Source of the DNA: Promethearchaeota archaeon
Lineage (GTDB): Archaea; Asgardarchaeota; Lokiarchaeia; Sigyniarchaeales; SOKP01
NCBI GenBank assembly: GCA_048938445.1
Contig: JBHLME010000063.1
Location: 1 to 24,666, forward strand
DNA length: 24,666 nt
Direction: 5' to 3'
The notes under the pieces: generated by a model
Database searches by the model: none
What the model saw: the letters and a program-made list of their open reading frames with translations, nothing else
What the model was told of the DNA's origin: nothing
Part shown: positions 3,523 to 23,823 of the stretch, piece after piece
Position numbering within the stretch: the stretch's first letter is position 1
How the letters are laid out: every line of letters begins with the position of its first letter
Made by a program: the position numbers and the translations under genes

Positions 3523-4053
3523 TTAATTATATGCAATCACATGATTTGCAAGAATTTCAAAAGCTTCTGTAACATTTTGTCCCGTTTTTGAAGATGTTTC
3601 GATAAAATTCAAAAAATTGTTTCTATCTATTGTTTTTGGAATGAGAACACTTTTTACTACCGAAATTTCGCTTAGATCAGCTTTTGTTGCTAAAAGGATG
3701 ATAGGTAAATTTTTATTTTGGGTTCTTAATAATTTTACCCAATTATCAATAGCGACAAAACTGGCATAATTTGTTATATCAAATAGTAATAAAGCACCAT
3801 GTGCTCCTTTTAAAGCGATATCTACAATGTATCGAAATCTATCTTGACCACCTAAATCCCATAATTGCATTTTACAGAGTAAATTGGATAATAATATTTC
3901 TTTATGAAAATGTTCAACACCGACAGTCATTTTTGATTTTTCTTCAAAGACTCCTTTAACAAAACGTTTTAGAAGTGTAGTTTTTCCTACGTTTGAGTTT
4001 CCTGCAATAATTATTTTCATAAATTTAGGTATTTGAGTTTGAGTCGTTAACAT
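3523..4053 (-). CDS. Rab/Ras-like small GTPase (Asgard eukaryotic-signature type)
   Basis: G1 GNSNVGKTT, G2 TVGVEH, G3 QLWDLGGQDRFR, G4 TKAD, G5 ETSSK; no C-terminal Cys. The ORF track starts at 4164, but ATG 4053 (MLTTQ) gives a typical 176-aa G domain. Confidence 0.92.
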   Translation of the reverse strand: MLTTQTQIPKFMKIIIAGNSNVGKTTLLKRFVKGVFEEKSKMTVGVEHFHKEILLSNLLCKMQLWDLGGQDRFRYIVDIALKGAHGALLLFDITNYASFVAIDNWVKLLRTQNKNLPIILLATKADLSEISVVKSVLIPKTIDRNNFLNFIETSSKTGQNVTEAFEILANHVIAYN

Positions 4054-4230
4054 CTTTATCATTTTAATGATAATTATTTTTAAACTATATAGAGCAATTT
4101 TTACAAAATAATTGACTGAGTCTGCTGGTTTTCTAAGGTTTTTTTCTTTAAAAATACTCTTCATGTTTTTATTTTTTCTTTAAATATTTACGTAAGATAT
4201 TGCATGTATAACTTTTCTAAGTGATAAATA

Positions 4231-5906: not shown

Positions 5907-6209
5907 TTAGGGATTAATTATAAAGTGATAAATGACTAAAACGATGAGAATAATTCCAATAATAAAATTTAGCACTGTCAAGAATAAATAGATCACTTTA
6001 AAAATAAAAATGAAATCTAGATTATACTCAACTATGGCAACTCTTAATTTTTCCAAAAAAAAATAGAAAGGTAATAAGATAATCAAATAAAAAATTAATC
6101 CCATGAGAGATACAAATGAATTGGATGATAATATAACGTAAATAAAAATTACAATCATTACTGCAAATAAGAAACTAATGGGAATTAACAATAACTGAAA
6201 TATATTCAA
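5907..6209 (-). CDS. Small integral membrane protein (about 3 TM), coupled to the pilus ATPase gene
   Basis: Three hydrophobic segments in 100 aa; its TTG start overlaps the TGA stop of the ATPase gene (6206-6209). Confidence 0.7.
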   Translation of the reverse strand: MNIFQLLLIPISFLFAVMIVIFIYVILSSNSFVSLMGLIFYLIILLPFYFFLEKLRVAIVEYNLDFIFIFKVIYLFLTVLNFIIGIILIVLVIYHFIINP

Positions 6210-8425
6210 TTCTTAGAAGCTCCTCTCCATTCATTCCAAAATTTATAAGCATCTTCATAAGATATAATTGAATAAAAGAATAATTCATGGAATAAATTTA
6301 CTAAATCATCATTACTAATTTTATCAGAGGTCAGTAAATAATCAAATATTTCTTCATATAATCTGATAAAGCTCTCAAAGCTCTTTTGGTTAATATTTTC
6401 AAATTTTTTAAGTCTATTTATAGTTCTAGTTTCATATAAATTTTTCAATAATTTCCAATCTAAGACTGCAGGATCGAGTAAAAATATTTCTCGATTATGT
6501 TCTCCTACTTGAAAGTGTTTTAAATCAATCTCTGAAACAGACGCAATCCTTCGCTTGTTAAACTCTCTTTTCATGAGAACTAGTAAATCTAAATCATCTA
6601 ATTGCGAATAATTAATCCCAAAAGTATGAATGAATCGATTTATCAGTGAGTCTATCGTATTTGAGTGAATCGTCTGAAATCCTCGCAATCCCGCAGCGAG
6701 ACAATGAAATAAGGCTTGTGCTTCTTCTTTTGTGAGAATTTCACCCAAATAGATCACATCTGGAGTGCGATGCAATAAGGTCTTTATATGATTACTCTTC
6801 GTATATTGACTTCTATCTGAAGATTCTAATGAGTCAGCATGATACTTTAATTGGTGCTTGTTGAATATTAACTGTTCTAAAGACTCAGTGACATTTTCTA
6901 CATATATTTTACGGAAATATTCTGGTAAAATTAAATCAAATGCATTTATTAATGTTGTTTTACCCGTGTCGGTTTCACCGGTTACGGTAATATTAATCCT
7001 TCTTACCATGCAAAAATAAAGAAAAGCAGCCATGAGGGGATTTAATGTCTTATTTTTCAGTAGATCTTGAATGGTTAAGATATTTTTGTTTAACTTTCTA
7101 ATATCGAGAGAAAAACGGGCTACATTAATAGGTCTTACATCAATAGCAAATCTACAATAAAAATACTGGTTTTTAATTACATATTTAAGTACTGGATTTG
7201 AATAGTCTAGCCTCTGTTTACTATATAATCGTAGCAACGTTATGATTCGCTGGATTTCTCTATTTGATAAAGTAATGTCAGTTCGACAACGCCCATACTT
7301 TTGATGATCTAAATAAATTTTACTATCAGGAGAATCTAGAAAAATTTCCTCAATAAAATCATCAATTAAAAGAGGAAAAAGCTTTTCCAATTGAAGGTAC
7401 TTAATTGTTATAAAGAGGATAATTTTATCTTTCTTTAAATTATCCATTTTGCGGTAATTAAGATCAATAATCCTTCGAACCTCATTCTTATACAAATCAA
7501 TTAAGCTTTCAAGGGAAACGGTATCATCAAACCTAAGAACTTGGATTTTCTTTATAACATTCTCAGATAACTTATCATAATATGACTCATCTCCTTGTAA
7601 TTGATGAGCTAGCAAAAATTTATATTTCTTTTCCGTTTTCCTTTTTATATCAGAAATATGAATTTGATATAATTCTCCAAGCTGATAGGTTTCTATAATA
7701 TTATACTTCGGCTCTTTCTGTATCTTCTTATCTAATGAAAAATTAATTAAATCTGATGAATGGGTCTTGGTTATTAAATATTCATAATAATAACGAGAAT
7801 CTTTAAATAATGAACTTTCATCCTGAAATTTATTATAATCTTGTATTAATATGCTTGAATTAAAAATATTTAATAATTTAATGAAAATTTTAAGAAGTTT
7901 TTCTTGACATATAATACATTCAGAATCATTAGGATGTTTTTTTTTACATTCTTTAAAAGCATCCTTAATTTTTAAATAAGCTTTAATTGGATCAAGGAGA
8001 TCATTTTTATCAAGTAATAAAATTTCGTTGTAGTTCTTAAATAGTTTGCAACCAAAATCTTGAGTATATCTACATTTTTCTTTAAATAATAATAAGTTTT
8101 TTTGTAACTTTTTAATGCTTTCAAGTTTTTTAAAAAAATCACAAATCGAATTAGTTACATAAGAGCTAATTGATGAATCAAGAGCCTCAATATGTACATC
8201 ATCAAATTTTTTTGCTAAATTATGCAATATATTATCGAAAACACATTGATAGCACGACTCATTCTTTAGAAATTTTTTTGAGAAATCAGGACAAATTCTG
8301 CACTCAATTGTTAATACTCTTCTCTTGCCCCCTTCGAGTACCTTTTTTGTTTGAATTATTCCTTTCTTACTATAATTATCAATCATTTTTTTAATAGTTC
8401 TATTGTTTTTTCTATTCAAAAGCAA
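6206..8425 (-). CDS. Type IV pilus / type II-IV secretion assembly ATPase (VirB11/TadA/FlaI family) with Cys-rich N-terminal extension
   Basis: FIEEIFLD..IYLDHQKYGRC, LDIRK, Walker A GETDTGKTT (6953-6979), Asp box VENVTE, Walker B PDVIYLGEI, His box TIHS; start may be ATG 8386. Confidence 0.93.
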   Translation of the reverse strand: MLLNRKNNRTIKKMIDNYSKKGIIQTKKVLEGGKRRVLTIECRICPDFSKKFLKNESCYQCVFDNILHNLAKKFDDVHIEALDSSISSYVTNSICDFFKKLESIKKLQKNLLLFKEKCRYTQDFGCKLFKNYNEILLLDKNDLLDPIKAYLKIKDAFKECKKKHPNDSECIICQEKLLKIFIKLLNIFNSSILIQDYNKFQDESSLFKDSRYYYEYLITKTHSSDLINFSLDKKIQKEPKYNIIETYQLGELYQIHISDIKRKTEKKYKFLLAHQLQGDESYYDKLSENVIKKIQVLRFDDTVSLESLIDLYKNEVRRIIDLNYRKMDNLKKDKIILFITIKYLQLEKLFPLLIDDFIEEIFLDSPDSKIYLDHQKYGRCRTDITLSNREIQRIITLLRLYSKQRLDYSNPVLKYVIKNQYFYCRFAIDVRPINVARFSLDIRKLNKNILTIQDLLKNKTLNPLMAAFLYFCMVRRINITVTGETDTGKTTLINAFDLILPEYFRKIYVENVTESLEQLIFNKHQLKYHADSLESSDRSQYTKSNHIKTLLHRTPDVIYLGEILTKEEAQALFHCLAAGLRGFQTIHSNTIDSLINRFIHTFGINYSQLDDLDLLVLMKREFNKRRIASVSEIDLKHFQVGEHNREIFLLDPAVLDWKLLKNLYETRTINRLKKFENINQKSFESFIRLYEEIFDYLLTSDKISNDDLVNLFHELFFYSIISYEDAYKFWNEWRGASKN

Positions 8426-8448
8426 GGAAATTATTTATCCAATATACT

Positions 8449-8718
8449 TTAAGCATCTTTGTCATTTTTAATATAATTTGATGTAAAAATTTCGATTTTT
8501 AGTGGATGCTTTAATTGATCTTGCTGATTGAATAAATGAAAGAATAATGAATTATAACTACTTGAATTTTGTTCTTCTTGTTCATTTTCCTCTTCCCAAT
8601 CATTAACATAATCCCTATAGTCATTGATTTCTGTAAAGATAGGTATTGCCCAAAATAGAAATGAAGATAGAATAATTAGCCCTACTAATATTAATAATAT
8701 TTTTTCAAGAGTTTCCAT
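8449..8718 (-). CDS. Single-TM pilin-like protein (putative minor pilin)
   Basis: From ATG 8718: METLEKILLILVGLIILSSFLFWAIPIF, Glu at +5 then a hydrophobic helix; directly upstream of the assembly ATPase. The ORF track start is 8754. Confidence 0.55.
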   Translation of the reverse strand: METLEKILLILVGLIILSSFLFWAIPIFTEINDYRDYVNDWEEENEQEEQNSSSYNSLFFHLFNQQDQLKHPLKIEIFTSNYIKNDKDA

Positions 8719-8817
8719 GTAATAAATTTTAAAATGAATAATATAAACCCTCATCTTTTTAAGATTTGGATTTTATACATTATTCATCAGATTGAATGCT
8801 TGGAAATATATTATCAA

Positions 8818-9564
8818 TTATAAATACGAATCTCTCTCAACAGTACTCACGTTTACTTGACCCACGCCTTTCATATTATTAGATAATGCATTTTGTGCCA
8901 TCATCATCATCATGACTTCTTTTATAAATTCATCTTCCTTTTTCTTGCCTATCTCATTATTTTTTATTTTTTCTTCAATATTTTCAAGTGCTTTCTTTTG
9001 AGCGTCAGTAAAACTATCAACGGATTTTTTTAGACTCTCTGAGAAATTTTTTAACCATTTTTCTTGCATTTTTGCAAGATCTTCAAGTTTTTCATCAATT
9101 TTATCATTTAGTTGTTGAATTTTATCGTTGGAAGCCTCCATTGGAGGAACATCAGGATCTCTATGATCTCTCTTAAATCTGTCTAACCAATTAGGTTCTT
9201 TTTTCATATCTGGATTAGGATCAATAAGCCACCTTTCAGATTCATTTTTTTTACCTGGCGGCCAAGATTTAGAGTTTTCTTTGATATTTTCTGAGTTTCC
9301 TTCAATAGAAATCTCAGTTTGTTTCTCTATTTGTCTAAATTTAATTTTACTATTTTCATTCTCTTTTAGCGTAATTTTTGCTTTTTCAAAATCAGTTGCT
9401 TTATTTTCATTCAATTTCTCTGCAACCGATTTTTTCCATATCTTTGATTTAGTCTCCTTTTTTCCTTTATTTTTATCAGGATTTTTTTTTGCTCCAGACT
9501 TAGGGCTTTTATTTTTTGGACTTTTTTTTTTTGAAGGATTCTTACTATTCTTAAATTGAACCAT
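8818..9564 (-). CDS. Hypothetical protein: Lys-rich disordered N-terminus plus coiled coil
   Basis: K/S/P-rich first 45 aa, heptad-like region KIQQLNDKIDEKLEDLAKMQ.., Met5 run near the C-terminus; GGGGA SD-like element upstream. Confidence 0.75.
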   Translation of the reverse strand: MVQFKNSKNPSKKKSPKNKSPKSGAKKNPDKNKGKKETKSKIWKKSVAEKLNENKATDFEKAKITLKENENSKIKFRQIEKQTEISIEGNSENIKENSKSWPPGKKNESERWLIDPNPDMKKEPNWLDRFKRDHRDPDVPPMEASNDKIQQLNDKIDEKLEDLAKMQEKWLKNFSESLKKSVDSFTDAQKKALENIEEKIKNNEIGKKKEDEFIKEVMMMMMAQNALSNNMKGVGQVNVSTVERDSYL

Positions 9565-9640
9565 AAATTATGATCCCCTTTTTTTATAGTTATATCTTGT
9601 TAAATTTATTTAAAGTAAATGTTTATTGAAATGTCTATTG

Positions 9641-12358
9641 TTAAGGTATTATAATAGAACTACCACAAGATGGACAATTATTATTAGTATTTTTAATTAA
9701 TTGTAAACACTTAGGACATTGGATCTTCAGAATATTAGTGGCATTGTCGATTTCAATCTTTTTAGGATAATAATCTGCTGTAATAAAATTAAAGAACTCT
9801 CCTGATACGCCCCGATCTAAAACACAGAATCGATCTGGAAGTCTTACAATGGTTTCAATATTCATTGGATTTTTAGTAAATCGTTCTACACTCGCAGAAC
9901 TTTGTCTCATTAGGAATTTTAATGAAGGAAGTGCTATAGCCGATTCGTCTAAATTATCTGCTCGTTGATTTGCAATTAAAAATGAGATCCCACGATCACG
10001 AAATTCAGAAAACAAAATTTCAAAAATTTTAATGATTTGCTCACACGCTACATAATCATCGCTCTTATTTTTTCCTTGAGTTGGTAAACTTTTGAGTATC
10101 CGATGCGCTTCATCTATAACAATCATATATTTCAATCCATGAACACCTTTATCCGGAGTTAACGTTCTTATCGTTTGTAGAATTATGATAGATATTAATC
10201 GTTGCTCCCATTCATTACACTCAGTCAAGTCTATCTGGACTACTTTTCCATTCTTCCAATCTTCATACCATTGGCCTGTATCAACAAAAGGATCCAATGT
10301 TTCAATAAGAGTCTTACTTGAAAGCTGTGTATTTATTCTTGTATTTAATGCAGAAGTGATACGAGATCGGAACTTATCATCATAGTCATGTTCTTCTTCA
10401 TAAAAATAATCTCGTACTAATTGTAACAGATTTACTATTGATCTTGGAGGTTCATTATTTTCAATAATATATTCCTCAAGGACACTTTTGCATGCATATA
10501 CGGCTTCTTCCTCAAAACCTATTGCACCCATTATTGCCTTGCTAACTTGAACAATATGTTTTTCGAATTTAGCTCTATTTTGTAAAGCATGAAGATAAGG
10601 TAATTGAAAATTCTTCCCAAACTTGTAAAATCGCTCTGCTGAATAAATATTTTCTTCATGTTCTCTCTTAAAATTTATGATCAATATCCCCGTTTCAGGT
10701 TTTGTTCTTGATATGGAATTAATGAGATGTCCAATGAGAAAACTTTTTCCCGCACCAATTTGTCCTATGACGCAACCTCCTTGAACAAAATCATCAACTT
10801 TCACATGCATTAGATTTTCTCTCTTCCTTCCATATTCATCAATCCATTTACCAATTGGGAAATTAGAATTATTTTTTACATGAGAATCCCATTTAATTAC
10901 TTGCTTTTTTAAACCTACAGGAACGTGAAATGGCATTTGTTTAGTAAAAGTAAAATCAAATGAGATAGGAGTTAAATATCTTCCACTATAAAGATTTCCT
11001 CTTAAAAAGTCTGCTCTTGCTCCACATAAAACCCTTCGTATCTTACCTATTTTTTTTTCATTTCTAATGGACACCAAAAGACTTCTGATCCTTCCATTTA
11101 ATGCCTGTACTTCATGACTTTTTGAATGAAATTCATTTCCGGCAATACCATAACTAATATATATTTTTACTTTAAATAATTCATCTCTCCACATCTGAAG
11201 GTAAGTATTTTTCTCTGCGGCATCTTTATATTTTAATGCAATTATTTTAGCTCTTTGTTCTAGAATTTTCTTGGGAGGTGCTTTTTTCCACATAATTAAA
11301 AGCTTGATTTTATGTCTATCTTCTCCAAAAAGAGTAATTAGACGATTTATCAAATCAATACGATTACTATATGGTGCTTTAGGAAATTTAATTACCCACC
11401 ATTTCTCTTTTTTGTAAAGATATTTATTATCTACCTTTATATGTTCTAACCTTCCATCAAGACCTTTATAGGTAGACTTTAGATTTGTTAATAACAGATT
11501 ACCTTTTTCTATACCTTCTCTTTCTGTACGTGTTTTAATAAGAAAATAAAATTTAAATTTATCTTTATTGAGGACTATCTTAGCTAAACTAGTTTTTCTT
11601 TTTCTATAAAAATCTAATAACCAGGTTTGAAATCTCTTTTTTTTAGTTTCCTCTTCCCTACCAATTTGTGAAATAATCACTTTTGTCATAAAAAAATGTC
11701 CTTTTTTATTTACTTTCATATTTATTTCATGTCTTTTTAAAATCTGATTGATTTCTGTTCTCAAGCTATGATAAAAGTGAATAATTCTTGCTGTAATCGG
11801 TCTATAACCAAGACTTATGATAGGCCAAATAATTAGAATAGAACTTATTGCAAATATTACTTCATTCAAAAGATAATGAGAGAGATATAAAAACCATGCC
11901 CCAATAAATAAGAGGTACAATCGCTTCCTATATTCATTCATATTAATTGTAGAAATAATAGTAAGCAATGCAATGAACATAATAATTATCGTTCCAGGAA
12001 CAAATGGTAAAAATAATCCAGACAGGAGTATATGGGAAAAAATAAGGATAATAGCTAAATATATGAAAAAAGTTTTTCCTTCTGACCTTTTATAAATTAT
12101 ATAATAATCCCAACTGAATAACATCAAAATTGAGGCCATTTCAAGTTCGAACATGATTATAAGTGTAAATTCTAAAAAAGAAAAGACGATTATTTCTATG
12201 AGAATAAAGAAAGTAATGAGGATGATGATAGATCCTAGATAAAATCCTATAATTTTTATGTATTCATATAACTCTTTTTTATAACAATAGAATGCTGTAA
12301 AAACCATGAATAATAGGATTGAAAAGAAAATTATGTACTGGAATATAAAAAATAGCAT
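9641..12358 (-). CDS. Polytopic membrane HerA/VirB4/FtsK-superfamily ATPase (DUF87-like) with C-terminal zinc ribbon
   Basis: About 7 hydrophobic helices in aa 1-185; Walker A GQIGAGKS (10742-10765); Walker B IVIDEAHR (about 10100-10123); SEFRDRG-ISFLIANQ Arg-finger/Q motif; terminal CPKC-x10-CPSCG. Confidence 0.88.
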   Translation of the reverse strand: MLFFIFQYIIFFSILLFMVFTAFYCYKKELYEYIKIIGFYLGSIIILITFFILIEIIVFSFLEFTLIIMFELEMASILMLFSWDYYIIYKRSEGKTFFIYLAIILIFSHILLSGLFLPFVPGTIIIMFIALLTIISTINMNEYRKRLYLLFIGAWFLYLSHYLLNEVIFAISSILIIWPIISLGYRPITARIIHFYHSLRTEINQILKRHEINMKVNKKGHFFMTKVIISQIGREEETKKKRFQTWLLDFYRKRKTSLAKIVLNKDKFKFYFLIKTRTEREGIEKGNLLLTNLKSTYKGLDGRLEHIKVDNKYLYKKEKWWVIKFPKAPYSNRIDLINRLITLFGEDRHKIKLLIMWKKAPPKKILEQRAKIIALKYKDAAEKNTYLQMWRDELFKVKIYISYGIAGNEFHSKSHEVQALNGRIRSLLVSIRNEKKIGKIRRVLCGARADFLRGNLYSGRYLTPISFDFTFTKQMPFHVPVGLKKQVIKWDSHVKNNSNFPIGKWIDEYGRKRENLMHVKVDDFVQGGCVIGQIGAGKSFLIGHLINSISRTKPETGILIINFKREHEENIYSAERFYKFGKNFQLPYLHALQNRAKFEKHIVQVSKAIMGAIGFEEEAVYACKSVLEEYIIENNEPPRSIVNLLQLVRDYFYEEEHDYDDKFRSRITSALNTRINTQLSSKTLIETLDPFVDTGQWYEDWKNGKVVQIDLTECNEWEQRLISIIILQTIRTLTPDKGVHGLKYMIVIDEAHRILKSLPTQGKNKSDDYVACEQIIKIFEILFSEFRDRGISFLIANQRADNLDESAIALPSLKFLMRQSSASVERFTKNPMNIETIVRLPDRFCVLDRGVSGEFFNFITADYYPKKIEIDNATNILKIQCPKCLQLIKNTNNNCPSCGSSIIIP

Positions 12359-12507
12359 TATAATCGTGTTATTTTATTTATAATTGAAATGCAAACTATA
12401 AAAACAAAAACAATTTCAAAGAGATGATAAATGTTTGGTTTTCCTATGATCTTAAATATCTAGATTAGAATTATCTTCCAAGAAATAATAAAAGAAGTTT
12501 ATTAATC

Positions 12508-13641
12508 TTGAACTCGATTTTAGCAAAAAAGAAAGAAAAATTTAAGCCTCTTTCTTATTATATCGAAGAACAATTTATTTTTTACGTTAGTCTTAGCCGA
12601 ACTAAAAAGATAATTGGTATAAGTATGATAAAGTCTGACGATTTCTTGCAAACAATGGAAATATTAAATGGAAACTTGATGGAAATATGTTTAGAATCTT
12701 ATTCAATACAAATTGAGATAGTAAATTCTAATTCACCTTTTTTTGTTCTAAGATTTTCAAGTGATAATAAAAAGGAGATTATTAAAGATTTTTTTAAAAT
12801 TAACCATAATTTTAAAGAACACAAATTAACGTATAGGATGTTTGAGAAAACACAATTGGAATTTTATTATCTCTATTTTATATCTAATGGTGTGATTCCA
12901 ATACCTTCAGATACTAAAGTTTCTATTTTTAAAAAAAAAATGAATATTTCTTTCCACGAAAACTCACTCTATTATATTTTCTATGAGATAATATCAAATT
13001 CACTAATTCAAAAAGAAGCAGCTTTTCAAGATTTAGTAAATTTATTGAAAGAAAGCAATTATCAAGGATACATGATCACATATGTAACTAATGATAATAG
13101 TGGAGAATTAAGATATTCATCCTATGTCGTGGAATTGAATAATGATCCTGCATATGAATTCGATTTATTAACAAAAGTGAATGAGTTTTTCAAGACAAAA
13201 TTATTAGAAATTCCGAATATTAAGTTAGAAATTATGGCTAAATTCTTATGGCGTTTACCCATTTCGAATGTTAGCTATTTTGCTCGAGATTTAAATTTAC
13301 TTTTTTCCTCAAGAAAGTCTTCTATAACTTCTAGTACCCAAGAACTATTATCTAATGTAGAAGAAAGGTTAAATCAAAATGAGATTCTATTCGAAAAATT
13401 AAATAGCAATTCAATTTTAATCAGCCAAAAGTATATTTTTACAGTCATAACGCATTTAAATCTTGATATTGTCATAGAATTTATAAAAAAATATGTTAAA
13501 ACTTATGGTCTTTATATTTATTTCACACGTGAAGAACATTATTCACAAATAATGGCATTTAATCACATTACTGAAATAAAAAATTTAACTTTATTAACCA
13601 AGGAATCATATCATTCATTAGATATTTCTCAATTTAGATAA
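12508..13641 (+). CDS. Hypothetical soluble protein, divergent from the HerA/VirB4-like gene
   Basis: 377-aa ORF with alpha/beta pattern and no TM; TTG start; ends 6 nt from the convergent platform gene. Confidence 0.75.
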   Translation: MNSILAKKKEKFKPLSYYIEEQFIFYVSLSRTKKIIGISMIKSDDFLQTMEILNGNLMEICLESYSIQIEIVNSNSPFFVLRFSSDNKKEIIKDFFKINHNFKEHKLTYRMFEKTQLEFYYLYFISNGVIPIPSDTKVSIFKKKMNISFHENSLYYIFYEIISNSLIQKEAAFQDLVNLLKESNYQGYMITYVTNDNSGELRYSSYVVELNNDPAYEFDLLTKVNEFFKTKLLEIPNIKLEIMAKFLWRLPISNVSYFARDLNLLFSSRKSSITSSTQELLSNVEERLNQNEILFEKLNSNSILISQKYIFTVITHLNLDIVIEFIKKYVKTYGLYIYFTREEHYSQIMAFNHITEIKNLTLLTKESYHSLDISQFR

Positions 13642-13647
13642 ATGCAT

Positions 13648-15210
13648 TTAGAGAAAGGAAATTCCATACATGAAACTCTGTATAAATGCAATGATAAATA
13701 TGAATGATAAGATATAGAACATAATTGAGATTCTTTTATGACGCACGATCTTAAGAAAATAATAGCAGGTTATTATTATGCAAACAAATAAAACACAAAA
13801 TATGATAATTACATCAGAAAAATCCATTAACTCGTACATGTGATTGATATTTTGCATCTCCTCTATATTTTCTAAATTTTTTACAATGGATATTACTAAA
13901 GGCAGCATTCCTCCAAGGGTGCCTAAGATTACAGGAAATAAGAATATGAAGATCTTAACAATAAATCTTTTTCCCCTTATGATTGTTTTGAATCTATCTT
14001 CAAGAGTTCTATGTCTTTCAATGATCTGAATAATGTCATTTATTTTTTCTGATGAATAATATGCACTATTTTCCAACATGCTATGAATTACATCTAAAAT
14101 AATTTTATATCTTGGACTTGCTAAAGTTATTTTAAGTTGGTTAATTAAATCTTCAAACGTGTATTGTAGACTTATGAGAGAAGATATGTGAGTATTTAGT
14201 GTTTCATTCAATAATGGAAATTGAGATTTATTCTTTGTCCAAGCTTTTATAAAAGCAACTTCCGGAGAATATGAATTTTTCAAGTTTAAAGCCAATGATT
14301 CAAGAAATTGAAGAAACTCACTGAATTGTTGCTCTTTTGTACGTGAATATTCATCTAATACTCCTATTAGGACCGTATTCACTCTTACTAGTTTTTTAAA
14401 CATCCAATACATGAAAACTAAAAGTAATGGAGTAATAAATAAAACAAAGAGAAGTTTAACTTGTTGAAATAAGATAAATGTACATAATATTAATGGAAAA
14501 AATAGGCCAATAAAAAATATTATACCTATTTTTGTATCTAAAGACTTAATTAATATGCGAAAATTCTTTTCTGCTGAGCTTTCATTATAATAGTCAATCT
14601 TGGTATTATATCCGAAATTTTTTATTAATAGTTCAGAAATATATATATTGAAATCCTTAGATGGAGTCACAAGTAATTCAAGTTCTTCTTCAGGAACGAA
14701 TCCTAAATGAATTCTACCAAAAATATGTCTAAATAATTCAGAAATAGGTAATTTATAATCCATCATCAATTTGATAAAAGTCATGCATGTATCAGCTCTC
14801 TCATGTTGGATGGATTTCTTTAAAGAGAAATTAATTTTTATGAGGTAAGATAATGCATTAATTACTTTTTCTTCTTTTTTTACTGTTTTATATAATACCA
14901 TATTAAAATAATAGGCAGAAATGATTGAAATGATTAAACCAAAAAGAATCGAGTAAAATACATTGAGAAAAATTTCTTCTAAATTTATAATTAGAAAAAA
15001 AATTAGAGTTGTCGGAAGAAAGAGAAAAAGAAAAACTATAAAAGAAGCTTTACAAATATCTTCTTCATTTACACCATATATAATCCGATAAACATATTTA
15101 TATTCCTTTGTAATTTCTTTAAATCGAAGTAGAGGTAAATTATATTTTTGAAAATAATTACAAAAGGAGAGATATCCTTTTAGTTTTTTATCTTTTTCAA
15201 ATTGTTGCAC
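13648..15210 (-). CDS. Type IV pilus membrane platform protein (TadB/TadC, FlaJ/GspF-like)
   Basis: TM clusters alternate with two cytoplasmic helical domains (IFGRIHLGFVPEEEL; FLESLALNLKNSYSPEVAF, a T2SSF-like signature); GTG start; directly downstream of the pilin. Confidence 0.85.
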   Translation of the reverse strand: MQQFEKDKKLKGYLSFCNYFQKYNLPLLRFKEITKEYKYVYRIIYGVNEEDICKASFIVFLFLFLPTTLIFFLIINLEEIFLNVFYSILFGLIISIISAYYFNMVLYKTVKKEEKVINALSYLIKINFSLKKSIQHERADTCMTFIKLMMDYKLPISELFRHIFGRIHLGFVPEEELELLVTPSKDFNIYISELLIKNFGYNTKIDYYNESSAEKNFRILIKSLDTKIGIIFFIGLFFPLILCTFILFQQVKLLFVLFITPLLLVFMYWMFKKLVRVNTVLIGVLDEYSRTKEQQFSEFLQFLESLALNLKNSYSPEVAFIKAWTKNKSQFPLLNETLNTHISSLISLQYTFEDLINQLKITLASPRYKIILDVIHSMLENSAYYSSEKINDIIQIIERHRTLEDRFKTIIRGKRFIVKIFIFLFPVILGTLGGMLPLVISIVKNLENIEEMQNINHMYELMDFSDVIIIFCVLFVCIIITCYYFLKIVRHKRISIMFYILSFIFIIAFIQSFMYGISFL

Positions 15211-15270
15211 TTTTCATTTCTCCGGAATTTATTTTATCATAAACTTGATAATAATCATTAAAAGTATTTC

Positions 15271-15660
15271 TCAGAGATTAGGTATTAGATTATCAATGGA
15301 TACTAAAAGATTATTAAAAAATCCTGGTATATTTGTTATTGACTTAAAATTTCTTATAAAATCCTCTTTAATCAAAATTAATTCTCTTTCATTATTATTT
15401 TTATGATTAGAATAAAAAGATAAATCCTGAATCTCATTTTTATCCATCTCAAGTCCTTCACCTTCAAGTCCAAATAAATCCAGAGCTTTATCTTTAACTT
15501 TTTCAAACTGAACGAGAGCAAACCAAAGAATAAGAGCAATTAAAAGCAAGGCTACTGCTAACATGAGGATATTATTGATGATTTCTCCTCCGCGTACCCC
15601 CTTTTTAAAATCCTTAAAATCTTGTTTAATTTTCTGTATAAATTGTTTTATATTTCTCAT
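15271..15660 (-). CDS. Type IV pilin with class III signal peptide (putative major pilin)
   Basis: Basic leader ..DFKKG|VRGGEIINNILMLAVALLLIALILWFALV with Glu at +5 after G21 and an approximately 22-aa hydrophobic helix; lies between the peptidase and platform genes. Confidence 0.75.
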   Translation of the reverse strand: MRNIKQFIQKIKQDFKDFKKGVRGGEIINNILMLAVALLLIALILWFALVQFEKVKDKALDLFGLEGEGLEMDKNEIQDLSFYSNHKNNNERELILIKEDFIRNFKSITNIPGFFNNLLVSIDNLIPNL

Positions 15661-15790
15661 TAAACATAATTAAAAAAATATATTTTTAAAATAAACCAAT
15701 TTTAATAATGCTTTCCTCCTTTCCTTCAGAAAATTATTATAGAAATTCCAAAATTCGTTATGTTTTTTTAGATAAGGGTAGATTATAATT

Positions 15791-16294
15791 TTGATGATAG
15801 AAAAGCTAATATTCTTAATATTTACATTTGCATCAATTTTTCTATATTATTTTTGGAATTCAGGATATTTAGCAAACAGGACAAAATTCTTATTATTTTT
15901 CTCATTTTTAGGTAGTCTTTTTTCCTATTTTATTTTATATGATTTTCTCATTACTATAAATGATTCAATACATATAATCATAGAAAAACTGTTTTCTTTC
16001 ATCCTTTTAAGCATTTCTTCTATATTTTTAATAATTAGTATTACGATTCCATCTGATAATGCTAAAAAGAAGAATTCTACTGATAATAAACTAAGAAATA
16101 AATTAAATAATAATAAGAGTCATTTTAATAAAAAGAATTTTAATCAACTTATAGAAAAATCAAATGATTTAAAAAAAATTGATAACGATATTCAATCTAA
16201 AGAAAAAAGTTTACAAAATGAAAAAGAAAATTCTAATATTTCAAAAGGTTTTCAAGGATTTTTAGATCGTCTCTTTAAAGAACAAGCTAAATAA
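15791..16294 (+). CDS. Membrane protein (3 TM) with charged coiled C-terminal tail
   Basis: Three hydrophobic segments in aa 5-87, then a K/N-rich tail ending FQGFLDRLFK. Confidence 0.65.
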   Translation: MMIEKLIFLIFTFASIFLYYFWNSGYLANRTKFLLFFSFLGSLFSYFILYDFLITINDSIHIIIEKLFSFILLSISSIFLIISITIPSDNAKKKNSTDNKLRNKLNNNKSHFNKKNFNQLIEKSNDLKKIDNDIQSKEKSLQNEKENSNISKGFQGFLDRLFKEQAK

Positions 16295-16313
16295 TTTAAA
16301 TATAAATTTTTTT

Positions 16314-16946
16314 TTAAAATATTCCTACAATAATAATTGTCTCTCCAGTGAGAATCCACATAAATTTTAGCATTAGAGGTAAACCAAAAAAAAAGGAAAC
16401 TAATATGAATATTATAAAATAAATGTGTCCTTTCGTTTTATCGTTTAAAACAATTTTCTTGAAAAGTGCGTGATATAATCCTAATAAAGCAATTAAAAAC
16501 GTTAACAGAGATATAAAGGATACTATTAAAAGCACAAATTGTTCTTTAAGCATTAATGATGTTAATTCTTGAACTGAATTGATTGAATTATGAGATGCCC
16601 CATAAATCCCTAAAGTGCTTATAATATCTAAGAAAAGAGAATTTGGGAGGAGATCAAAGCAAATTAAAAGTAGAAATTGAGTAATTTTAAATAATGAGAA
16701 TACCGAAAACAATCCAAGAATATATACACCTAACTTTATCTTTAAATCTATATTTTTCATTCTAATTTTTAGATTTTCTTGTTTAAATTCGAACTTTTTA
16801 GAAGCACCGATTAAACGATTAGCTAATAAAAATAAAATCACGCATAATAAGATATTAGAGTTGGTAAATATAAAATATAAAAAGGTAACCAAATAATACA
16901 TACCAATATAAATTTGGCGATCAAGAAATTCTGATGATAAAATCAT
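16314..16946 (-). CDS. Integral membrane protein (4-5 TM)
   Basis: Multiple hydrophobic segments; starts 13 nt after the prepilin peptidase stop, so probably co-transcribed. Confidence 0.7.
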   Translation of the reverse strand: MILSSEFLDRQIYIGMYYLVTFLYFIFTNSNILLCVILFLLANRLIGASKKFEFKQENLKIRMKNIDLKIKLGVYILGLFSVFSLFKITQFLLLICFDLLPNSLFLDIISTLGIYGASHNSINSVQELTSLMLKEQFVLLIVSFISLLTFLIALLGLYHALFKKIVLNDKTKGHIYFIIFILVSFFFGLPLMLKFMWILTGETIIIVGIF

Positions 16947-16959
16947 TTCACATTTCTTT

Positions 16960-17553
16960 CTAGAAAAAAGTATATAAATTAATCGCTTCTGTAAGAAATA
17001 TTAGCATTATCAACATAAAAACATAGGTAAAGAAGAAAGGAACAATTAGGGGGACTATCATTCTTTTTTCAACTTGTTTGGAAGATTTTCTAGTTCTACA
17101 TTGCGATTGAGAGAGATTTTCTAAAGAGTTAGAAAATTTGAGTGATCTACCATTAGTTTTAGTTTTTTTAAATTTTTTGAAATAAAATATTACAGTATAA
17201 ATGATAAGAATAAAGCTATAGCAGAGAAATGTATATTTCAAGAAAAAAGCTAAATAAATGAATGGTAGTGAATGAAAATAAAGAATTATTGTTTTTCCAT
17301 CAGCACCACCAATTAAATTCTTTGAAAAAAGAATAAACATGATTATCAATAAAAATAAAAAAACGATAACTTTTGTAAATATGTAGAAGAGAATTATATC
17401 ATATAAAAAAATAGCTTCAAGAATTATTAAAAAGGAAGAATAATAGAAATAAATCCTAAAAACTCTATTTGATATTTGACGAGTCTTAAAATCATAATAG
17501 ATACATACTAAAAGAAAAATAAAAATCGAAAGGAAATTTATAATATAAATCAA
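16960..17553 (-). CDS. Prepilin peptidase, family A24 (PibD/FlaK/TadV-like GxGD-type aspartic protease)
   Basis: First catalytic Asp in YYDFKTRQISN, second in IGGADGK, C-terminal VPLIVPFF; polytopic. Confidence 0.9.
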   Translation of the reverse strand: MIYIINFLSIFIFLLVCIYYDFKTRQISNRVFRIYFYYSSFLIILEAIFLYDIILFYIFTKVIVFLFLLIIMFILFSKNLIGGADGKTIILYFHSLPFIYLAFFLKYTFLCYSFILIIYTVIFYFKKFKKTKTNGRSLKFSNSLENLSQSQCRTRKSSKQVEKRMIVPLIVPFFFTYVFMLIMLIFLTEAINLYTFF

Positions 17554-18110: not shown

Positions 18111-20447
18111 TTGAATTTAATGATGATAACTACTCGAGAAGCAATTAATTATCAATTCTCATTAATTTTTGGATATTCTTCTTCTAAAGAAGACGATTTG
18201 GTGGTAGGAGATGTAATTGGTCCTGGGAATTTGATGAAGGAAAAGGTGAAAGAATTATCACATGAAGTTATAAAGTTTTTAAGAATGTATAATGCAATTT
18301 TAAGAGATTATACTGGATCGGAATTATATTCAATCGAATTTTCTCTTTTTAATAAAGAAGAACTCCAAAAAGAGGGTGTTACATCAATTAGAATATATCC
18401 AAAATCAATGATATTATTGCCTGGTAAATATAAAGATTGTGAAAGTTCTTTACTCGCTTTAAAACCTGAACCAGATGTATTAAATCCTCATAAATCAAGA
18501 GAAGCGATGAACGATATCAGTGAATTATTTTATGAAGTTGAAGAATTTTCAGAAAGACCCGAAATTAATTCTAAAACCAAGGAATTACTCCTACAAAAAT
18601 TTTCGACAAGATTTAGTAATAAGCTTTTTGGTGATTTGTTAGAACATAAGTGGAATAAGGAGATGGTTGGTTTGAGTCTATCCTTGCCGACAGGGAAGGA
18701 AATGATTGATGTTTATGCTAAAGTTAAATCTGAGATGCAAATGTCATGGTATAAAAGACCTCATGAATTAGACTTTATCAATCCACAATATGAATCTCAT
18801 GAAAGGATTTATGAAGGTAAAAATGCAATTGAACATTTAAAATATGCAATAACCGAACCTAGCTCTAATTTCATTGTTGGCTATACGCTAAAACTTGGAA
18901 CTGATCTTTTTGAATTATGTAATACTGGTACCATCGATGAGATACAGGATGAATTCATTTCTTTTTTGATTAATAGTATTAATGATGAGTTTAAAAAAAT
19001 TAATGATAATTATGACATTAACCAGTTAATCAACAAATTTAAACAATTATTAAGTAAAATAAACCAATTTACAAATAGGTTTTTAGATCATTCAAATAGC
19101 TTCATAATTTCGGGTAAAAAAGGAGATTTAAAAGAATTATTAGAAATGTACAAAATACATGTTATTGAAAAGGGGAAAGTTGGAAATGACAATTATGATC
19201 TTCTTCTCGATTTAACGATAAACTTAATAAATCAATCAATATCTGAAAAAGATGGTCTGAGAGCTTCAGAATTAGGTTCATTATTTAATAGTTTAAGAGA
19301 ATTATTTAAAAATAGTTATGATATTATTATAACATCATTACCGAGATATTTATTATATAGAATTATAAAAAATTTTACTAATTATTTCATGATGGTTTTA
19401 AGTGAAGATTTAAAAAAAGAAGAAGATCAATTAAGGATTTTAGGAAGCAATTTTATTGGAAAATTAAAAGATTTTATTTTAAATCAAATTGAAATGTATC
19501 CTATTACTGTTTCAGGAGATTTGAAAATAAATCAGACAGAAGTAATAAAAGATTTTAAGAATTTCCTTCGCTTAAACTTTGATTCCTTTTTTAAAACAGT
19601 AAAAATTAAAGTAGGAGATATATTCCTACTTGCTGAAGAAACTACTCAGCTGAATTCAGAAGCAATTAAAAAGAAAATTGAATTATTTAAAAAATTACCC
19701 GGAGAGCTTAATTATTTTATAAATTATATAATGAAATATACAACGATAAATCGTTTTCTAAAAGAAAATCCTATAAGTGAAATTTCTGATCCTGTTACTT
19801 TTTCAAATAAATTTTTCAGGTTTTTAGAAAAAAGAATTGGAGGAGTAAATTTAAATTGGAAATCATATCTATTAAGTTGGATTAATGATTATGCTAAACA
19901 ATATTTTAAAGAATTAGATAAAAAACCAATGACATTAGATGAAATATACAATGATTTTTTAAAATATTTCACACTTAGAGAAATTGAAGAGCAAAATCCA
20001 GAGAATTTTGTAAAAATAGTGCATAGTTTAAATGAAAAATTATCAGTTGAACAAGAGAATAGTGAAATTTTTGAATTTTTAAAGCAATATGAAAATTATA
20101 TTGATGTAATAAATAGTTTTCCAAATCATTTTAAAGAGATAATTAATGATAAAATTCAGACATTAAACCTTAGCAATGAGGAAACCCATCCAAATAATTT
20201 TTTGAAAATTGATAATGATTTAACATTTTATCAATTTATTAAAGAGAAAGAATTAAAATATTTCTCTAACTTGATTCCTAGACCATCATCTCTTATATTA
20301 AAACATACTTTATCTGATGAAGAAAAGCTTTTATTTCGTAAACCACTTTATCATGTGATTAATTTTACATATTGGCATGGTCATTCAAGTTTTTACCTTG
20401 CTGATAATTTCAAAACAACATTTAGGGAGTGGGAGAAACAATTATGA
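18111..20447 (+). CDS. Large hypothetical protein, mostly alpha-helical
   Basis: 778-aa ORF (likely start ATG 18120 or 18123); alpha/beta N-terminus, long amphipathic helices, no TM, no NTP motif. Confidence 0.85.
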   Translation: MNLMMITTREAINYQFSLIFGYSSSKEDDLVVGDVIGPGNLMKEKVKELSHEVIKFLRMYNAILRDYTGSELYSIEFSLFNKEELQKEGVTSIRIYPKSMILLPGKYKDCESSLLALKPEPDVLNPHKSREAMNDISELFYEVEEFSERPEINSKTKELLLQKFSTRFSNKLFGDLLEHKWNKEMVGLSLSLPTGKEMIDVYAKVKSEMQMSWYKRPHELDFINPQYESHERIYEGKNAIEHLKYAITEPSSNFIVGYTLKLGTDLFELCNTGTIDEIQDEFISFLINSINDEFKKINDNYDINQLINKFKQLLSKINQFTNRFLDHSNSFIISGKKGDLKELLEMYKIHVIEKGKVGNDNYDLLLDLTINLINQSISEKDGLRASELGSLFNSLRELFKNSYDIIITSLPRYLLYRIIKNFTNYFMMVLSEDLKKEEDQLRILGSNFIGKLKDFILNQIEMYPITVSGDLKINQTEVIKDFKNFLRLNFDSFFKTVKIKVGDIFLLAEETTQLNSEAIKKKIELFKKLPGELNYFINYIMKYTTINRFLKENPISEISDPVTFSNKFFRFLEKRIGGVNLNWKSYLLSWINDYAKQYFKELDKKPMTLDEIYNDFLKYFTLREIEEQNPENFVKIVHSLNEKLSVEQENSEIFEFLKQYENYIDVINSFPNHFKEIINDKIQTLNLSNEETHPNNFLKIDNDLTFYQFIKEKELKYFSNLIPRPSSLILKHTLSDEEKLLFRKPLYHVINFTYWHGHSSFYLADNFKTTFREWEKQL

Positions 20448-23091: not shown

Positions 23092-23823
23092 TTAGAGATA
23101 TTTTTCCCAAACACGAGATTTAATTCCTTGAGAGATAAGGTATTCTTTAACATCTGTCAATAAAATATGTGGATCATATTCCCAAGCTTCTATTTTATTG
23201 AAGGATAAGCATTTTAGTTCAGTAACTTTCAACAATTTTTTTAATAGTAACCCATATGATGCAACTTGTGGGATTGAAATCATAAAATTTCCTTCAGGTT
23301 TATAATCAATAACCTTGATTACATTTTCATCAGCATCAATTTGAATTAGGTCAATATGTCCGGTGATAAATCTACCATTAATATTACTCCAAATAGGAAC
23401 TTCAATAGCAATTGAATCTTTATCTTTTATTAATATATTTTTTAAAATTGGCTCATGACCGGGAATTTTATTTATTTTATTTTCTTTATAGTTTTCAAAA
23501 ACACCCTGAGCATATTTAGATAACTTGTAATTGTTTCCATACTTCTTGATTATTCCTTGACGAATAAGTTGCTTACCAAAACTTACTATAAATCCGTTCT
23601 TAAGACCTTTAATTTTGAAATTAGATATTCTTTGAATATTTCTTGAATTAAAAATATCATTTGGAACTAAGGATGTTTGATATACTTTCTTAAAATAACT
23701 CCCTAACTTCCTAAATTCTTCTCTATTTGTTCTTGAAACTGCTAATTTTTCTTTATGATGTTGTAAATTCCAATTAAAACTATATTTTATGCTCTGATGA
23801 TAAAAATCACGTTTTTTTATCAA
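23092..23823 (-). CDS. PD-(D/E)XK nuclease, RecB/AddB-like family
   Basis: H..I..AIEVPIW, ITGHIDL, VIDYKP and QVASYG (QxxxY) motifs; no Fe-S cysteines. Confidence 0.85.
   Translation of the reverse strand: MIKKRDFYHQSIKYSFNWNLQHHKEKLAVSRTNREEFRKLGSYFKKVYQTSLVPNDIFNSRNIQRISNFKIKGLKNGFIVSFGKQLIRQGIIKKYGNNYKLSKYAQGVFENYKENKINKIPGHEPILKNILIKDKDSIAIEVPIWSNINGRFITGHIDLIQIDADENVIKVIDYKPEGNFMISIPQVASYGLLLKKLLKVTELKCLSFNKIEAWEYDPHILLTDVKEYLISQGIKSRVWEKYL

Follow-up and report, generated by a model that had tools for sequence, protein, structure and literature searches.

Gene content of the locus

The locus spans positions 5907~17553 of the window (the whole stretch of 24,666 nucleotides analysed, from one contig of a Promethearchaeota archaeon) and comprises nine minus-strand and two plus-strand genes, whose places and essentially also identities agree with the original prediction. 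It holds a complete T4F (pilus) set, namely a prepilin peptidase, a pilin with a class III-like signal, a divergent platform and a FlaI/GspE-type ATPase, among which a 905-aa HerA/VirB4-like membrane translocase is encoded. The translocase, lysine-rich, pilin-like, ATPase and 3-TM genes form a co-oriented run with gaps of 76, 63, 23 and -4 bp, respectively, the last being a 4-bp overlap of the ATPase and 3-TM genes. No terminator-like site was found in 5700~17900, against 2.1 expected, and the GC content of the window varies between 0.23 and 0.32 with no evident foreign block. As predicted, relaxase, integrase and archaellum accessory families have no match among the 20 scanned window proteins; likewise, no transposase or integrase was found in the window. 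Family scans of the window proteins identified no VirB6/CedA-like, VirB2/CedA1-like, nuclease, relaxase or DNA-binding domain, a PADLOC scan of eight of them gave no defence effector, and NurA, Sir2, DUF4297 and other MADS/Dnd partners are absent by both kinds of scan.

The class III signal (prepilin) peptidase (197 aa; 16960~17553, minus strand) matches PF01478 with 28.5 bits (cut-off of 26.5), and its D21 and G82-G83-x-D85-G86-K87 are invariant in all seven aligned homologues. Its gene also occurs in the variant loci L052, L053 and L056. The candidate pilin (129 aa; 15271~15660, minus strand) matches Pilin_N only below threshold (E-value of 0.047); its N-terminus consists of a basic leader of ~23 residues, an [E/R]-x-G-G-[E/D] motif and ~22 hydrophobic residues. 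Six aligned homologues from variant loci and two Flp-like proteins of 65-66 residues share this pattern. The Flp motif is G/XXXXEY, and the Flp-like character is clearest in related loci, as in the G/SLLEYG of L051.

The 520-aa protein encoded at 13648~15210 (minus strand), with ~7 TM helices, has no direct Pfam or NCBIfam match. PF00482 exceeds its cut-off nowhere in the genome and is reached by two of the 14 platform-family members (best E-value of 4.2e-4). A platform-family HMM, however, matches seven of seven proteins of ~470-520 residues from other Asgard families, taken from places where PF00482 is over its cut-off, with E-values of 1e-37 to 1e-51. The AF2 model is all-helical (pLDDT of 82), and homologues adjoin the T4F ATPase in relatives. 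The protein is a divergent T2SSF-type platform; the predicted TadBC platform holds as to its type, but it is a single fused protein, not a TadB/TadC pair.

The T4F assembly ATPase (739 aa; 6206~8425, minus strand) carries a Cys-rich N-terminal extension and is the sole strong PF00437 match in the genome (61.1 bits). It matches NCBIfam FlaI with an E-value of 4.8e-28, and its ranked matches are archaeal GspE (PDB 2oap, 5e-25), FlaI (1e-19), CpaF (5e-10) and VirB11 (2e-5). The protein, labelled VirB11/TadA earlier, is nearer to GspE/FlaI than to CpaF or VirB11. The small pilin-like protein (8449~8754, minus strand) is monotopic, with one N-terminal TM helix and no family match; its true start is probably at 8718, since M13 corresponds to the first residue of the homologues. 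In ordinary T4F loci, these homologues are encoded between ATPase and platform, and in variant loci their genes lie upstream of that of the ATPase. The 100-aa protein with three TM helices (5907~6209, minus strand) is a standing component of T4F loci in the family; its gene adjoins that of the platform in ordinary loci and follows the ATPase gene in variant ones.

The translocase and the proteins encoded around it

The translocase (905 aa; 9641~12358, minus strand) consists of six to eight TM helices (residues 1~215), an α/β domain (~220~450), a P-loop ATPase domain (~500~820) and a Zn ribbon (878~900). Weak family matches were obtained to DUF87/HerA (E-value of 0.0015; better DUF87 matches exist elsewhere in the genome) and Zn_ribbon_3 (0.0069), and none to the VirB4 Pfam families. 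The ATPase domain matches PADLOC mad8 (3.4e-15) as well as HerA defence models, which places it by sequence nearest to DUF87/HerA proteins and the defence-associated mad8. Across 13 homologues the Walker A (G532, G537 and K538) and Walker B (D749 and E750) residues are invariant, as are C884 and C895 of the Zn ribbon, and C881 and C898 are nearly so. Structural similarity search of the AF2 model using Foldseek gave VirB4/TrwK as the top match (5e-11 over 811 columns), followed by HerA (2e-8), DndH-C (7e-8) and TrwB, with Sir2-HerA and DUF4297-HerA also listed. The match to the VirB4 C-terminal domain (PDB 4ag6) has a TM-score of 0.59; the global TM-scores are only ~0.3.

Directly 3' of the translocase gene lies that of a 248-aa protein (8818~9564, minus strand) with a lysine-rich N-terminal half, a helical C-terminal half and a conserved C-terminal motif. 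A family scan gave matches to helical proteins only. Orthologues occupy the same place in L022, L052, L056 and L097, and in L053 an unmatched 334-aa protein takes it. The K+R content of the family is 23-29%, and the four closest of the five lysine-rich proteins end in VST..R[E/D]SYL. More generally, a charged low-complexity protein is encoded downstream of the translocase-family ATPase in essentially every locus examined. These proteins are basic where the translocase belongs to the T4F-linked clade, and acidic, with lengths of 228 to 1903 aa, in the other loci; phmmer linked no basic to acidic ones. Two downstream proteins of other loci carry Hint and LAGLIDADG domains, and a third weakly matches LAGLIDADG. 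The genes of soluble translocase-family members follow one for a membrane protein that contains an HExxH motif.

A 210-aa polytopic membrane protein (16314~16946, minus strand), of no known family in Pfam or NCBIfam, travels with the translocase module. Its homologues occur in the variant loci L052, L053, L056 and L095 and beside T4F-free translocases in L024 and L098; the latter two also match a related 201-aa protein of L111. The two plus-strand genes encode a 167-aa protein with two TM helices and a charged C-terminal tail (15791~16294) and the soluble 377-aa protein p377 (12508~13641). The former has no significant family match, and its homologues lie at the matching place and strand in L052, L056 and L095. 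For p377, no Pfam, PDB or Atlas relative was found. Its gene is a conserved companion of ordinary and variant T4F loci alike: in L022, L052, L053, L056 and L095 it is convergent to that of the platform, in L038~L041 and L047 it lies near the ordinary locus, and it also occurs in L111.

Distribution and phylogeny of the cluster

In the ordinary T4F locus of the family, the ATPase, the small monotopic protein and the platform are encoded contiguously, by rpl3-rpl4-rpl23 and without the translocase. The window differs in its order of platform, p377, translocase, lysine-rich protein, small protein and ATPase. As predicted for archaeal operons, ATPase and platform are normally neighbours in relatives, only one small gene apart, and the window thus truly departs from this pattern. 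The paralogues of the two locus kinds share 40-48% identity in the ATPase and 31-44% in the platform, and the 3-TM protein, the small monotopic protein, p377 and the prepilin peptidase are paralogous as well. An intact ordinary ATPase was not found in four of the five genomes that carry the variant: it is reduced to a fused remnant of 236 aa in G000 and to broken pieces in G133, and no second match was obtained in G132 or G134. The variant therefore seems to act as the T4F machine of the cell.

The window gene order, including both plus-strand genes, is kept in seven other loci (L022/L057, L053, L056, L095~L097 and L052+L109, the last interrupted by a 9.3-kb insert that separates translocase and ATPase in G132). 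Translocase identity across these loci is 42-67%, and the flanking genes (TFB, small GTPase and wHTH) are shuffled. The phylogenies of both ATPases agree with the predicted merger of pilus and translocase genes: the T4F ATPases of variant loci group together (100/100) in a clade that branches from within the family's ordinary ones, and the T4F-linked translocases form one clade (support of 1.0). The variant is rare, occurring in five of 135 genomes of the family, and its conservation within one clade could reflect inheritance rather than selection. Moreover, a second T4F cluster (contig C69 of G146) has a different order, and its translocase (29% identity) belongs to another subclade. This translocase is flanked by the platform and a Flp-like pilin on one side and by a 3-TM protein, a p377 homologue and an ATPase on the other, and comes with separate partners, namely a 201-aa TM protein, an acidic protein and a 256-aa protein. 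The layout of the window is more than chance.

In the wider translocase family, most loci lack the merger. The original prediction counted usual separation of the two in relatives against its reading, and at least 29 other translocase-family loci show no T4F genes in the examined DNA, which in many cases has short flanks. G028 and G012 carry a homologue and the T4F locus on one contig, at distances of 26 and 85 kb, respectively. The family has a patchy distribution with multiple copies: members occur in 23 of 61 relatives, and G015 has six matches. The soluble homologue of L026 adjoins two genes whose N-termini resemble, by eye, an OLD-type ATPase and a UvrD helicase.

Possible function and related systems

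The original interpretation as a whole is partly supported. As the best reading we tentatively favor, at a probability of roughly 0.4, a CedB/CedD-like translocase to which a pilus machine is coupled, and the locus is a good candidate, as yet unproven, for a machine that couples a pilus to the transfer of DNA or protein. It would be a lineage-specific T4F machine of one Promethearchaeota (Asgard archaea) family whose operon took in a translocase module. The gene identities, the intact catalytic motifs, the operon-like spacing and the conserved and recurrent linkage are observed; that the parts are physically coupled, that the pump forms a ring, what it carries and in which direction, we infer. 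The pilus part (prepilin peptidase, Flp-like pilin, platform, FlaI/GspE-type ATPase and small membrane proteins) would build a filament on the cell surface, and the translocase part (the 905-aa protein, its lysine-rich downstream protein and the polytopic protein of 210 aa) would be a membrane pump, ring-shaped and driven by ATP, that moves a polymer across. Both parts may act as one machine, the filament for contact or capture and the pump for transport. By analogy with the Ups pili and Ced importer that Sulfolobales possess, and with the competence pili of bacteria, the cargo would most likely be DNA. No gene of the locus is a specific indicator of DNA. Our searches found no description of such a pilus-translocase locus in print.

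The prevalence of unlinked family members could instead indicate an independent translocase module, perhaps related to defence or mobile elements, that was inserted once in a duplicated T4F locus and co-inherited with it while uncoupled from the pilus. The mad8 and HerA defence matches, the Foldseek likeness to DndH, Sir2-HerA and DUF4297-HerA, the patchy, multi-copy distribution, the by-eye neighbours in L026 and the tolerated insert in G132 fit this explanation. We nevertheless regard it as unlikely, because the translocase gene lies inside a tight co-oriented run ending in the T4F ATPase, the order persists at 42-67% identity despite shuffled flanks, and a second, differently arranged embedding involves another subclade; the window also lacks a defence effector among the PADLOC-scanned proteins, an integrase or transposase, and a clear foreign block by GC.

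In type VII secretion, membrane-anchored FtsK-like EssC/EccC ATPases export the products of neighbouring genes. A pump that exports or handles protein rather than DNA, with the charged downstream protein as substrate or adaptor and the pilus cluster building a decorated filament or secretion device, would explain the near-constant presence of that protein. Its C-terminal motif, present in the 248-aa protein and its closest orthologues, could serve as a recognition signal, and the HExxH protein fits protein processing; the Hint and LAGLIDADG domains of other downstream proteins also speak for this reading. This is somewhat less probable still, as the closest structural relatives (VirB4, HerA, DndH and TrwB) and the architectural match CedD act on DNA, and phmmer did not connect the basic and acidic downstream proteins. 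Placement within the T4F operon, and the apparent replacement of the ordinary cluster by the variant, might also suit an additional filament motor or regulator, for instance for retraction, with no cargo pump. This is highly improbable: homologues in most loci work without T4F genes nearby, and the protein lacks PilT-like features and belongs to the HerA/VirB4 fold family. PilT-type ATPases are absent from archaea, according to PMC4858521.

For the favored pilus-coupled translocase, the Ups pili and Ced system (CedA, CedA1, CedA2, CedB and CedD) offer a close comparison, as HerA-clade ATPases associated with the membrane are likewise combined with a type IV pilus there. According to published descriptions, CedD consists of a TM domain, an N-terminal domain and a HerA/VirB4/CedB-like ATPase (PMC11868833), and the N-terminal domains of CedB and CedD resemble that of VirB4 (PMC11868833, PMC9905601). 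Judged by this published description, the 905-aa protein shares the three-part layout of CedD; together with the top structural match to VirB4/TrwK, this favors the predicted CedB/VirB4-like translocase, whereas its sequence is nearest to DUF87/HerA and mad8. It differs from the Ced ATPases in its six to eight TM helices and C-terminal Zn ribbon. Compared to Ups and Ced, pilus genes and ATPase share one operon-like cluster here, with no CedA/VirB6 or CedA1/VirB2 homologue identified in the window.

Apart from the VirB4/TrwK-like ATPase, the locus holds no T4SS component. HerA-NurA, Sir2-HerA, DUF4297-HerA, MADS mad8 and DndH have a similar ATPase core, but differ in the partners that the window lacks, and an N-terminal polytopic domain is not known for these systems. 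On the pilus side, bacterial Tad/Flp and archaeal Epd-like pili share short Flp-like pilins and an A24-type peptidase with the window family, and CpaF is among the PDB matches of the window ATPase. They differ in that the window platform is a single protein and its ATPase is closer to archaeal GspE/FlaI; TadB/TadC-like pairs were found in other Asgard families.

A translocase embedded in a type IV filament cluster

All eleven genes of the original prediction are present in the window with the correct coordinates. The window is contig C185 (24,666 bp) of genome G000, whose 4.6-Mb assembly has a completeness of 96.5% and a contamination of 8.2%. The GC content varies between 0.23 and 0.32 along the contig without a clear foreign block, and the only annotation carried by close homologues is "hypothetical protein [Promethearchaeota archaeon]". 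The predicted embedding of a membrane translocase (905 aa, 9641-12358, minus strand) among type IV filament (T4F) genes is real, and the gene order is conserved across further loci despite rearranged flanks, in which TFB, the winged-helix protein p84, p152 and the GTPase change places. The variant cluster reads peptidase, 210-aa transmembrane (TM) protein, (2-TM protein p167, 15791-16294, plus strand), pilin, platform (13648-15210, minus), (soluble protein p377, 12508-13641, plus), translocase, lysine-rich protein (8818-9564, minus), monotopic protein, T4F ATPase (6206-8425, minus) and 3-TM protein.

Locus L056 keeps the whole order from the peptidase through the 3-TM protein, as does L053, in which p167 is undetected and an unmatched 334-aa protein replaces the lysine-rich protein. 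L022 (the same as L057) runs from the pilin through the 3-TM protein, with the peptidase, 210-aa TM protein and p167 absent from its 20 kb. L052 plus L109 together give a complete cluster, but five TPR-like genes on the opposite strand, a block of 9.3 kb, split its translocase pair from its ATPase trio. The metagenome fragments L095, L096 and L097 follow the variant order wherever they cover it. In L096 (3-2060), the variant-type translocase lies in two frames of 519 and 116 aa, which may reflect a frameshift or an error in sequencing. Translocase and platform database matches that coincide in longest-contig size point indirectly to some seven further linked contigs. The translocases of variant loci share 42-67% identity with that of the window. 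The linked translocases form one clade (support 1.0, FastTree), and the variant ATPases group together as a single clade (100/100, IQ-TREE) within the ordinary ATPases of the family. Of 135 family genomes, five, spread over three genera, have variant-type translocase homologues; this minority version embeds a putative CedB/CedD-like membrane pump. The region 5907-15700, whole or in part, is present in nine DNA runs of three studies, with no RNA run among the listed holders. A promoter scan, which returned 80 sites against 86 expected, is uninformative and used a sigma-70 model that is inapplicable to archaea.

The family also possesses an ordinary, translocase-free T4F locus, ordered as ATPase, a 125-140-aa monotopic protein and platform, with a 99-aa 3-TM gene convergent to them. 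Its neighborhood comprises an A24 peptidase, TFB, rpl3-rpl4-rpl23 and a p377 homologue, in addition to a 400-aa protein with an N-terminus that looks Orc1/Cdc6-like by eye only. The ordered locus beside the rpl3 operon is conserved across the family (L038-L046, L110). The T4F ATPase was found in 101/135 family genomes; among 61 relatives, 42 have ATPase homologues and 36 platform homologues. An ordered T4F locus in most genomes of one Asgard family differs from the picture given in the 2026 archaeal T4F census (PMC13705601), in which ordered loci are rare in the Asgard superphylum and core genes scattered. One reason that such loci are missed or reported as scattered may be that the platform escapes the Pfam model PF00482, which gave a match in 0/9 genomes of family f1 (0/10 counting G000).

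In G000 itself, the ordinary site beside rpl3-rpl4-rpl23 (contig C45, locus L047, 9546-10256) holds only a 236-aa frame that fuses an N-terminal stretch matching the T4F ATPase (residues 30-133) to a C-terminal stretch matching the platform (residues 414-517); paralogues of both p377 and the 3-TM protein accompany it. This frame resembles what a deletion in the ordinary locus would leave behind, though its contig could belong to another strain, given the 8% assembly contamination. The ordinary ATPase is broken in genome G133 and a second T4F ATPase was found in neither G132 nor G134; in G015, the ordinary and variant ATPases are both intact. The variant cluster apparently replaces the ordinary locus.

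A second embedded cluster lies on contig C69 of genome G146, with all genes on one strand save one small opposite-strand ORF. It is ordered as platform, 54-aa Flp-like pilin, 201-aa TM protein, TM-fused translocase, acidic 231-aa protein, two small ORFs, 256-aa protein, 3-TM protein, p377, a small Cys-rich ORF that is Zn-ribbon-like by eye, and ATPase. Its translocase and three partner proteins group with the T4F-free loci L023, L024, L055 and L098, and its ATPase falls outside the variant clade with weak support; there are hence two forms of the association.

Filament components and the divergent platform

The 739-aa T4F ATPase matches PF00437 (GspE/FlaI/TadA family) with 61.1 bits against a cut-off of 24.9 and is the sole strong match to this model in the window genome. 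Its nearest PDB relatives are archaeal GspE (2oap, 5e-25) and FlaI (1e-19), with CpaF and VirB11 behind. The 197-aa peptidase matches PF01478 with 28.5 bits (cut-off 26.5) and keeps both catalytic Asp motifs, with D21 and GGxD85GK invariant in 7/7 aligned homologues. The 129-aa candidate pilin gives a sub-threshold Pilin_N match (E 0.047); in the alignment, it shares with its homologues and with the 65-66-aa Flp-like proteins of related loci a basic leader followed by G-G-[E/D] and a hydrophobic helix. The cluster contains a PF00437 ATPase, an A24 peptidase with two catalytic Asp residues and, on indirect grounds, a platform.

No family model matches the 520-aa platform directly, and PF00482 found nothing in either protein or genome scans; only 2 of the 14 members of the platform family reach this model, at best with 4.2e-4. 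An HMM of the platform family matched 7/7 proteins of ~470-520 aa from other Asgard families (1e-37 to 1e-51), which had been fetched from places scoring over the PF00482 cut-off. The 520-aa protein is accepted on this indirect route as a putative divergent T2SSF (PilC/FlaJ/TadBC) platform. A search of a library of 5.8 billion proteins yielded 65 close relatives, none of which has a Pfam domain, so they provide no bridge to the known platform family. The structural model is good (pLDDT 82); Foldseek against the PDB returned nothing, with a best E of 0.37, and the profile search of the PDB nothing meaningful. The predicted complex of the platform with the TM domain of the translocase scored 0.00 against a mark of 0.32, which is evidence neither way.

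The translocase and its homologues away from pilus genes

The translocase consists of six to eight N-terminal helices, an α/β domain, a P-loop ATPase whose Walker A and B motifs are invariant, and a four-Cys ribbon at the C-terminal end. By sequence, it matches only DUF87/HerA (E 0.0015), the PADLOC model mad8 (3.4e-15) and HerA models. The single sequence has no match in the PDB, and its profile reaches only a weak HerA match (8wiv, E 0.055). Remote relatives in a library of 1.84 billion proteins are DUF87 proteins of 850-1200 aa, one of them from Njordarchaeales. The AlphaFold2 model is of moderate quality (pLDDT 64; 70-90 in the ATPase core). Structural similarity search using Foldseek ranked TrwK/VirB4 first, with an E-value of 5e-11 over ~800 columns, followed by HerA, DndH-C, the VirB4 C-terminal domain (TM-score 0.59) and TrwB. 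Residues 1-215 gave no usable match in the ESM Atlas. The neighboring p377 had no profile match in the PDB and only sub-threshold structure rows in the ESM Atlas, where the query model was poor. The translocase family comprises ~100 clusters at 50% identity, with membrane partners either fused or adjacent, and is undescribed as far as our literature searches reach.

Translocase homologues occur in 23/61 relatives, often in multiple copies, and at E<=1e-60 in 12/135 family genomes. The synteny expected of a merged locus holds within the variant clade, whereas at least 29 examined homologue loci have no T4F gene nearby (the gene maps of L061, L062, L064 and L065 were left out of this inspection). 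The presence of the translocase module in such loci means that it can work without a pilus. Another locus, L036, gave no match in the ORF screen. The steady neighbor in the unlinked loci described in detail is a downstream charged low-complexity protein of 228-1903 aa. Among three such downstream proteins (L023 11517-13643, L055 8658-11324 and L058 7655-11299), two carry Hint (Intein_splicing) and LAGLIDADG domains, and that of L058 has a weak LAGLIDADG match only. The Hint/LAGLIDADG domains extend almost to the C-terminus with no obvious C-extein after them, and may therefore be not a true intein but an autoprocessing domain at the C-terminus.

Soluble homologues of 599-688 aa are found in L058, L060, L063, L100, L101, L103 and L107, the last cut by the contig end. 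Upstream of them, and of soluble forms of 640-720 aa, lies a separate membrane protein of 241-272 aa that bears an HExxH motif, preceded in L101 and L103 by a 92-93-aa TM protein; very large acidic proteins of up to 1903 aa follow in 6/7 loci, the seventh (L107) being cut off. The soluble homologue, the HExxH protein and the acidic protein constitute a separate, undescribed gene module. The idea that the fused TM domain of the translocase corresponds to this separate ~250-aa HExxH protein was ruled out by an hhalign probability of 2.8%. In locus L026 (11887-15549), two genes with OLD-family ATPase-like and UvrD-type helicase-like N-termini form a Gabija-like pair (by eye), ~0.5 kb from a soluble translocase homologue.

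Possible functional coupling and comparison with known systems

According to PMC11868833, CedB and CedD belong to the HerA clade by sequence and are VirB4-like in their N-terminal domains; the published layout of CedD, compared by description only, matches the translocase. The Ced and Ted systems, as outlined in PMC9905601, employ homologues of VirB4, VirB6 and VirB2. The candidate for the VirB4/CedB-like ATPase is the translocase, with TrwK/VirB4 as the top Foldseek match (5e-11) and only DUF87 in Pfam. Candidates for the VirB6/CedA-like part are the 6-8-TM domain of the translocase and the 210-aa protein, neither of which has a Pfam match. As to a VirB2/CedA1-like two-helix pilin, the 3-TM 100-aa protein of the window also belongs to ordinary T4F loci.

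Other affiliations of the translocase were also considered. A HerA-NurA end-resection helicase is at odds with its membrane anchor and with the 20 window proteins, among which no NurA or Mre11/Rad50 family was matched; outside the translocase, the window genome has four other DUF87 matches over the cut-off. For a HerA-type defence system (Sir2-HerA, DUF4297-HerA or MADS), no partner gene was seen beside the ATPase: PADLOC matched no effector model in eight window proteins, and among the seven besides the translocase only the 248-aa lysine-rich protein gave two marginal matches (E 0.004-0.008). A virus or plasmid origin was rejected: PHROGs returned a single family of unknown function, and the predicted absence of relaxase and integrase was borne out, with neither family matched in family scans of the window proteins. 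Foldseek against BFVD related the translocase to uncharacterised Bacillus phage membrane ATPases. No DNA-processing gene was indicated by family and PADLOC scans of the window proteins.

The original prediction merged pilus and translocase into one machine. Functional coupling of the two is plausible, partly supported and favoured by the operon structure, by the conserved order against shuffled flanks, and by the fact that the variant apparently replaces the ordinary locus and the association recurs; the many T4F-free homologue loci, the small number of genomes with the variant and the lack of DNA-processing genes among the window proteins scanned weigh against it. The fullest reading is that some Asgard archaea have fused a DNA-exchange apparatus into one chromosomal operon, combining an Ups-like contact or capture pilus with a Ced-like DNA pump, arisen at least twice in the family and replacing the ordinary pilus; we put its chance at roughly one in five. 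The pump half would be a single polypeptide made of the polytopic domain and the VirB4/HerA-like ATPase. If true, the prokaryotes most closely related to eukaryotes would own a self-contained device for competence or for DNA transfer between cells. Little is known of DNA exchange and surface machines in Asgard archaea, and if the parts act together, the cluster would be a compact candidate, amenable to testing, for taking up or exchanging DNA or for a new route of secretion, and would show that pilus and translocase modules are able to merge into one operon. Literature searches on Asgard archaea with type IV pili and HerA, or with VirB4, showed nothing relevant by title or abstract among the papers listed. 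The main text of the 2016 census (PMC4858521) mentions neither Lokiarchaeota nor a HerA-linked locus, and "HerA" is absent from that of the 2026 census (PMC13705601); no description of the T4F-translocase arrangement was found in the literature, the supplements of PMC13705601 aside.

The flank of the cluster in the window holds TFB and two small GTPases. Two overlapping plus-strand ORFs of 778 and 762 aa (18111-20447 and 20429-22717) have no family, defence or phage match and are not conserved beside other variant clusters. A 243-aa minus-strand protein (23092-23823) gave sub-cut-off matches to a PD-(D/E)XK nuclease (E 0.0063) and a CARF-associated HTH (E 0.0033). The Ras-family GTPase (136-738; PF00071, 4.9e-40) and the second small GTPase (3523-4164) are both typical Asgard signature genes. 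Homologues of the second GTPase in other families (L048-L051) are preceded by two conserved genes for proteins of ~300 and ~340 aa.
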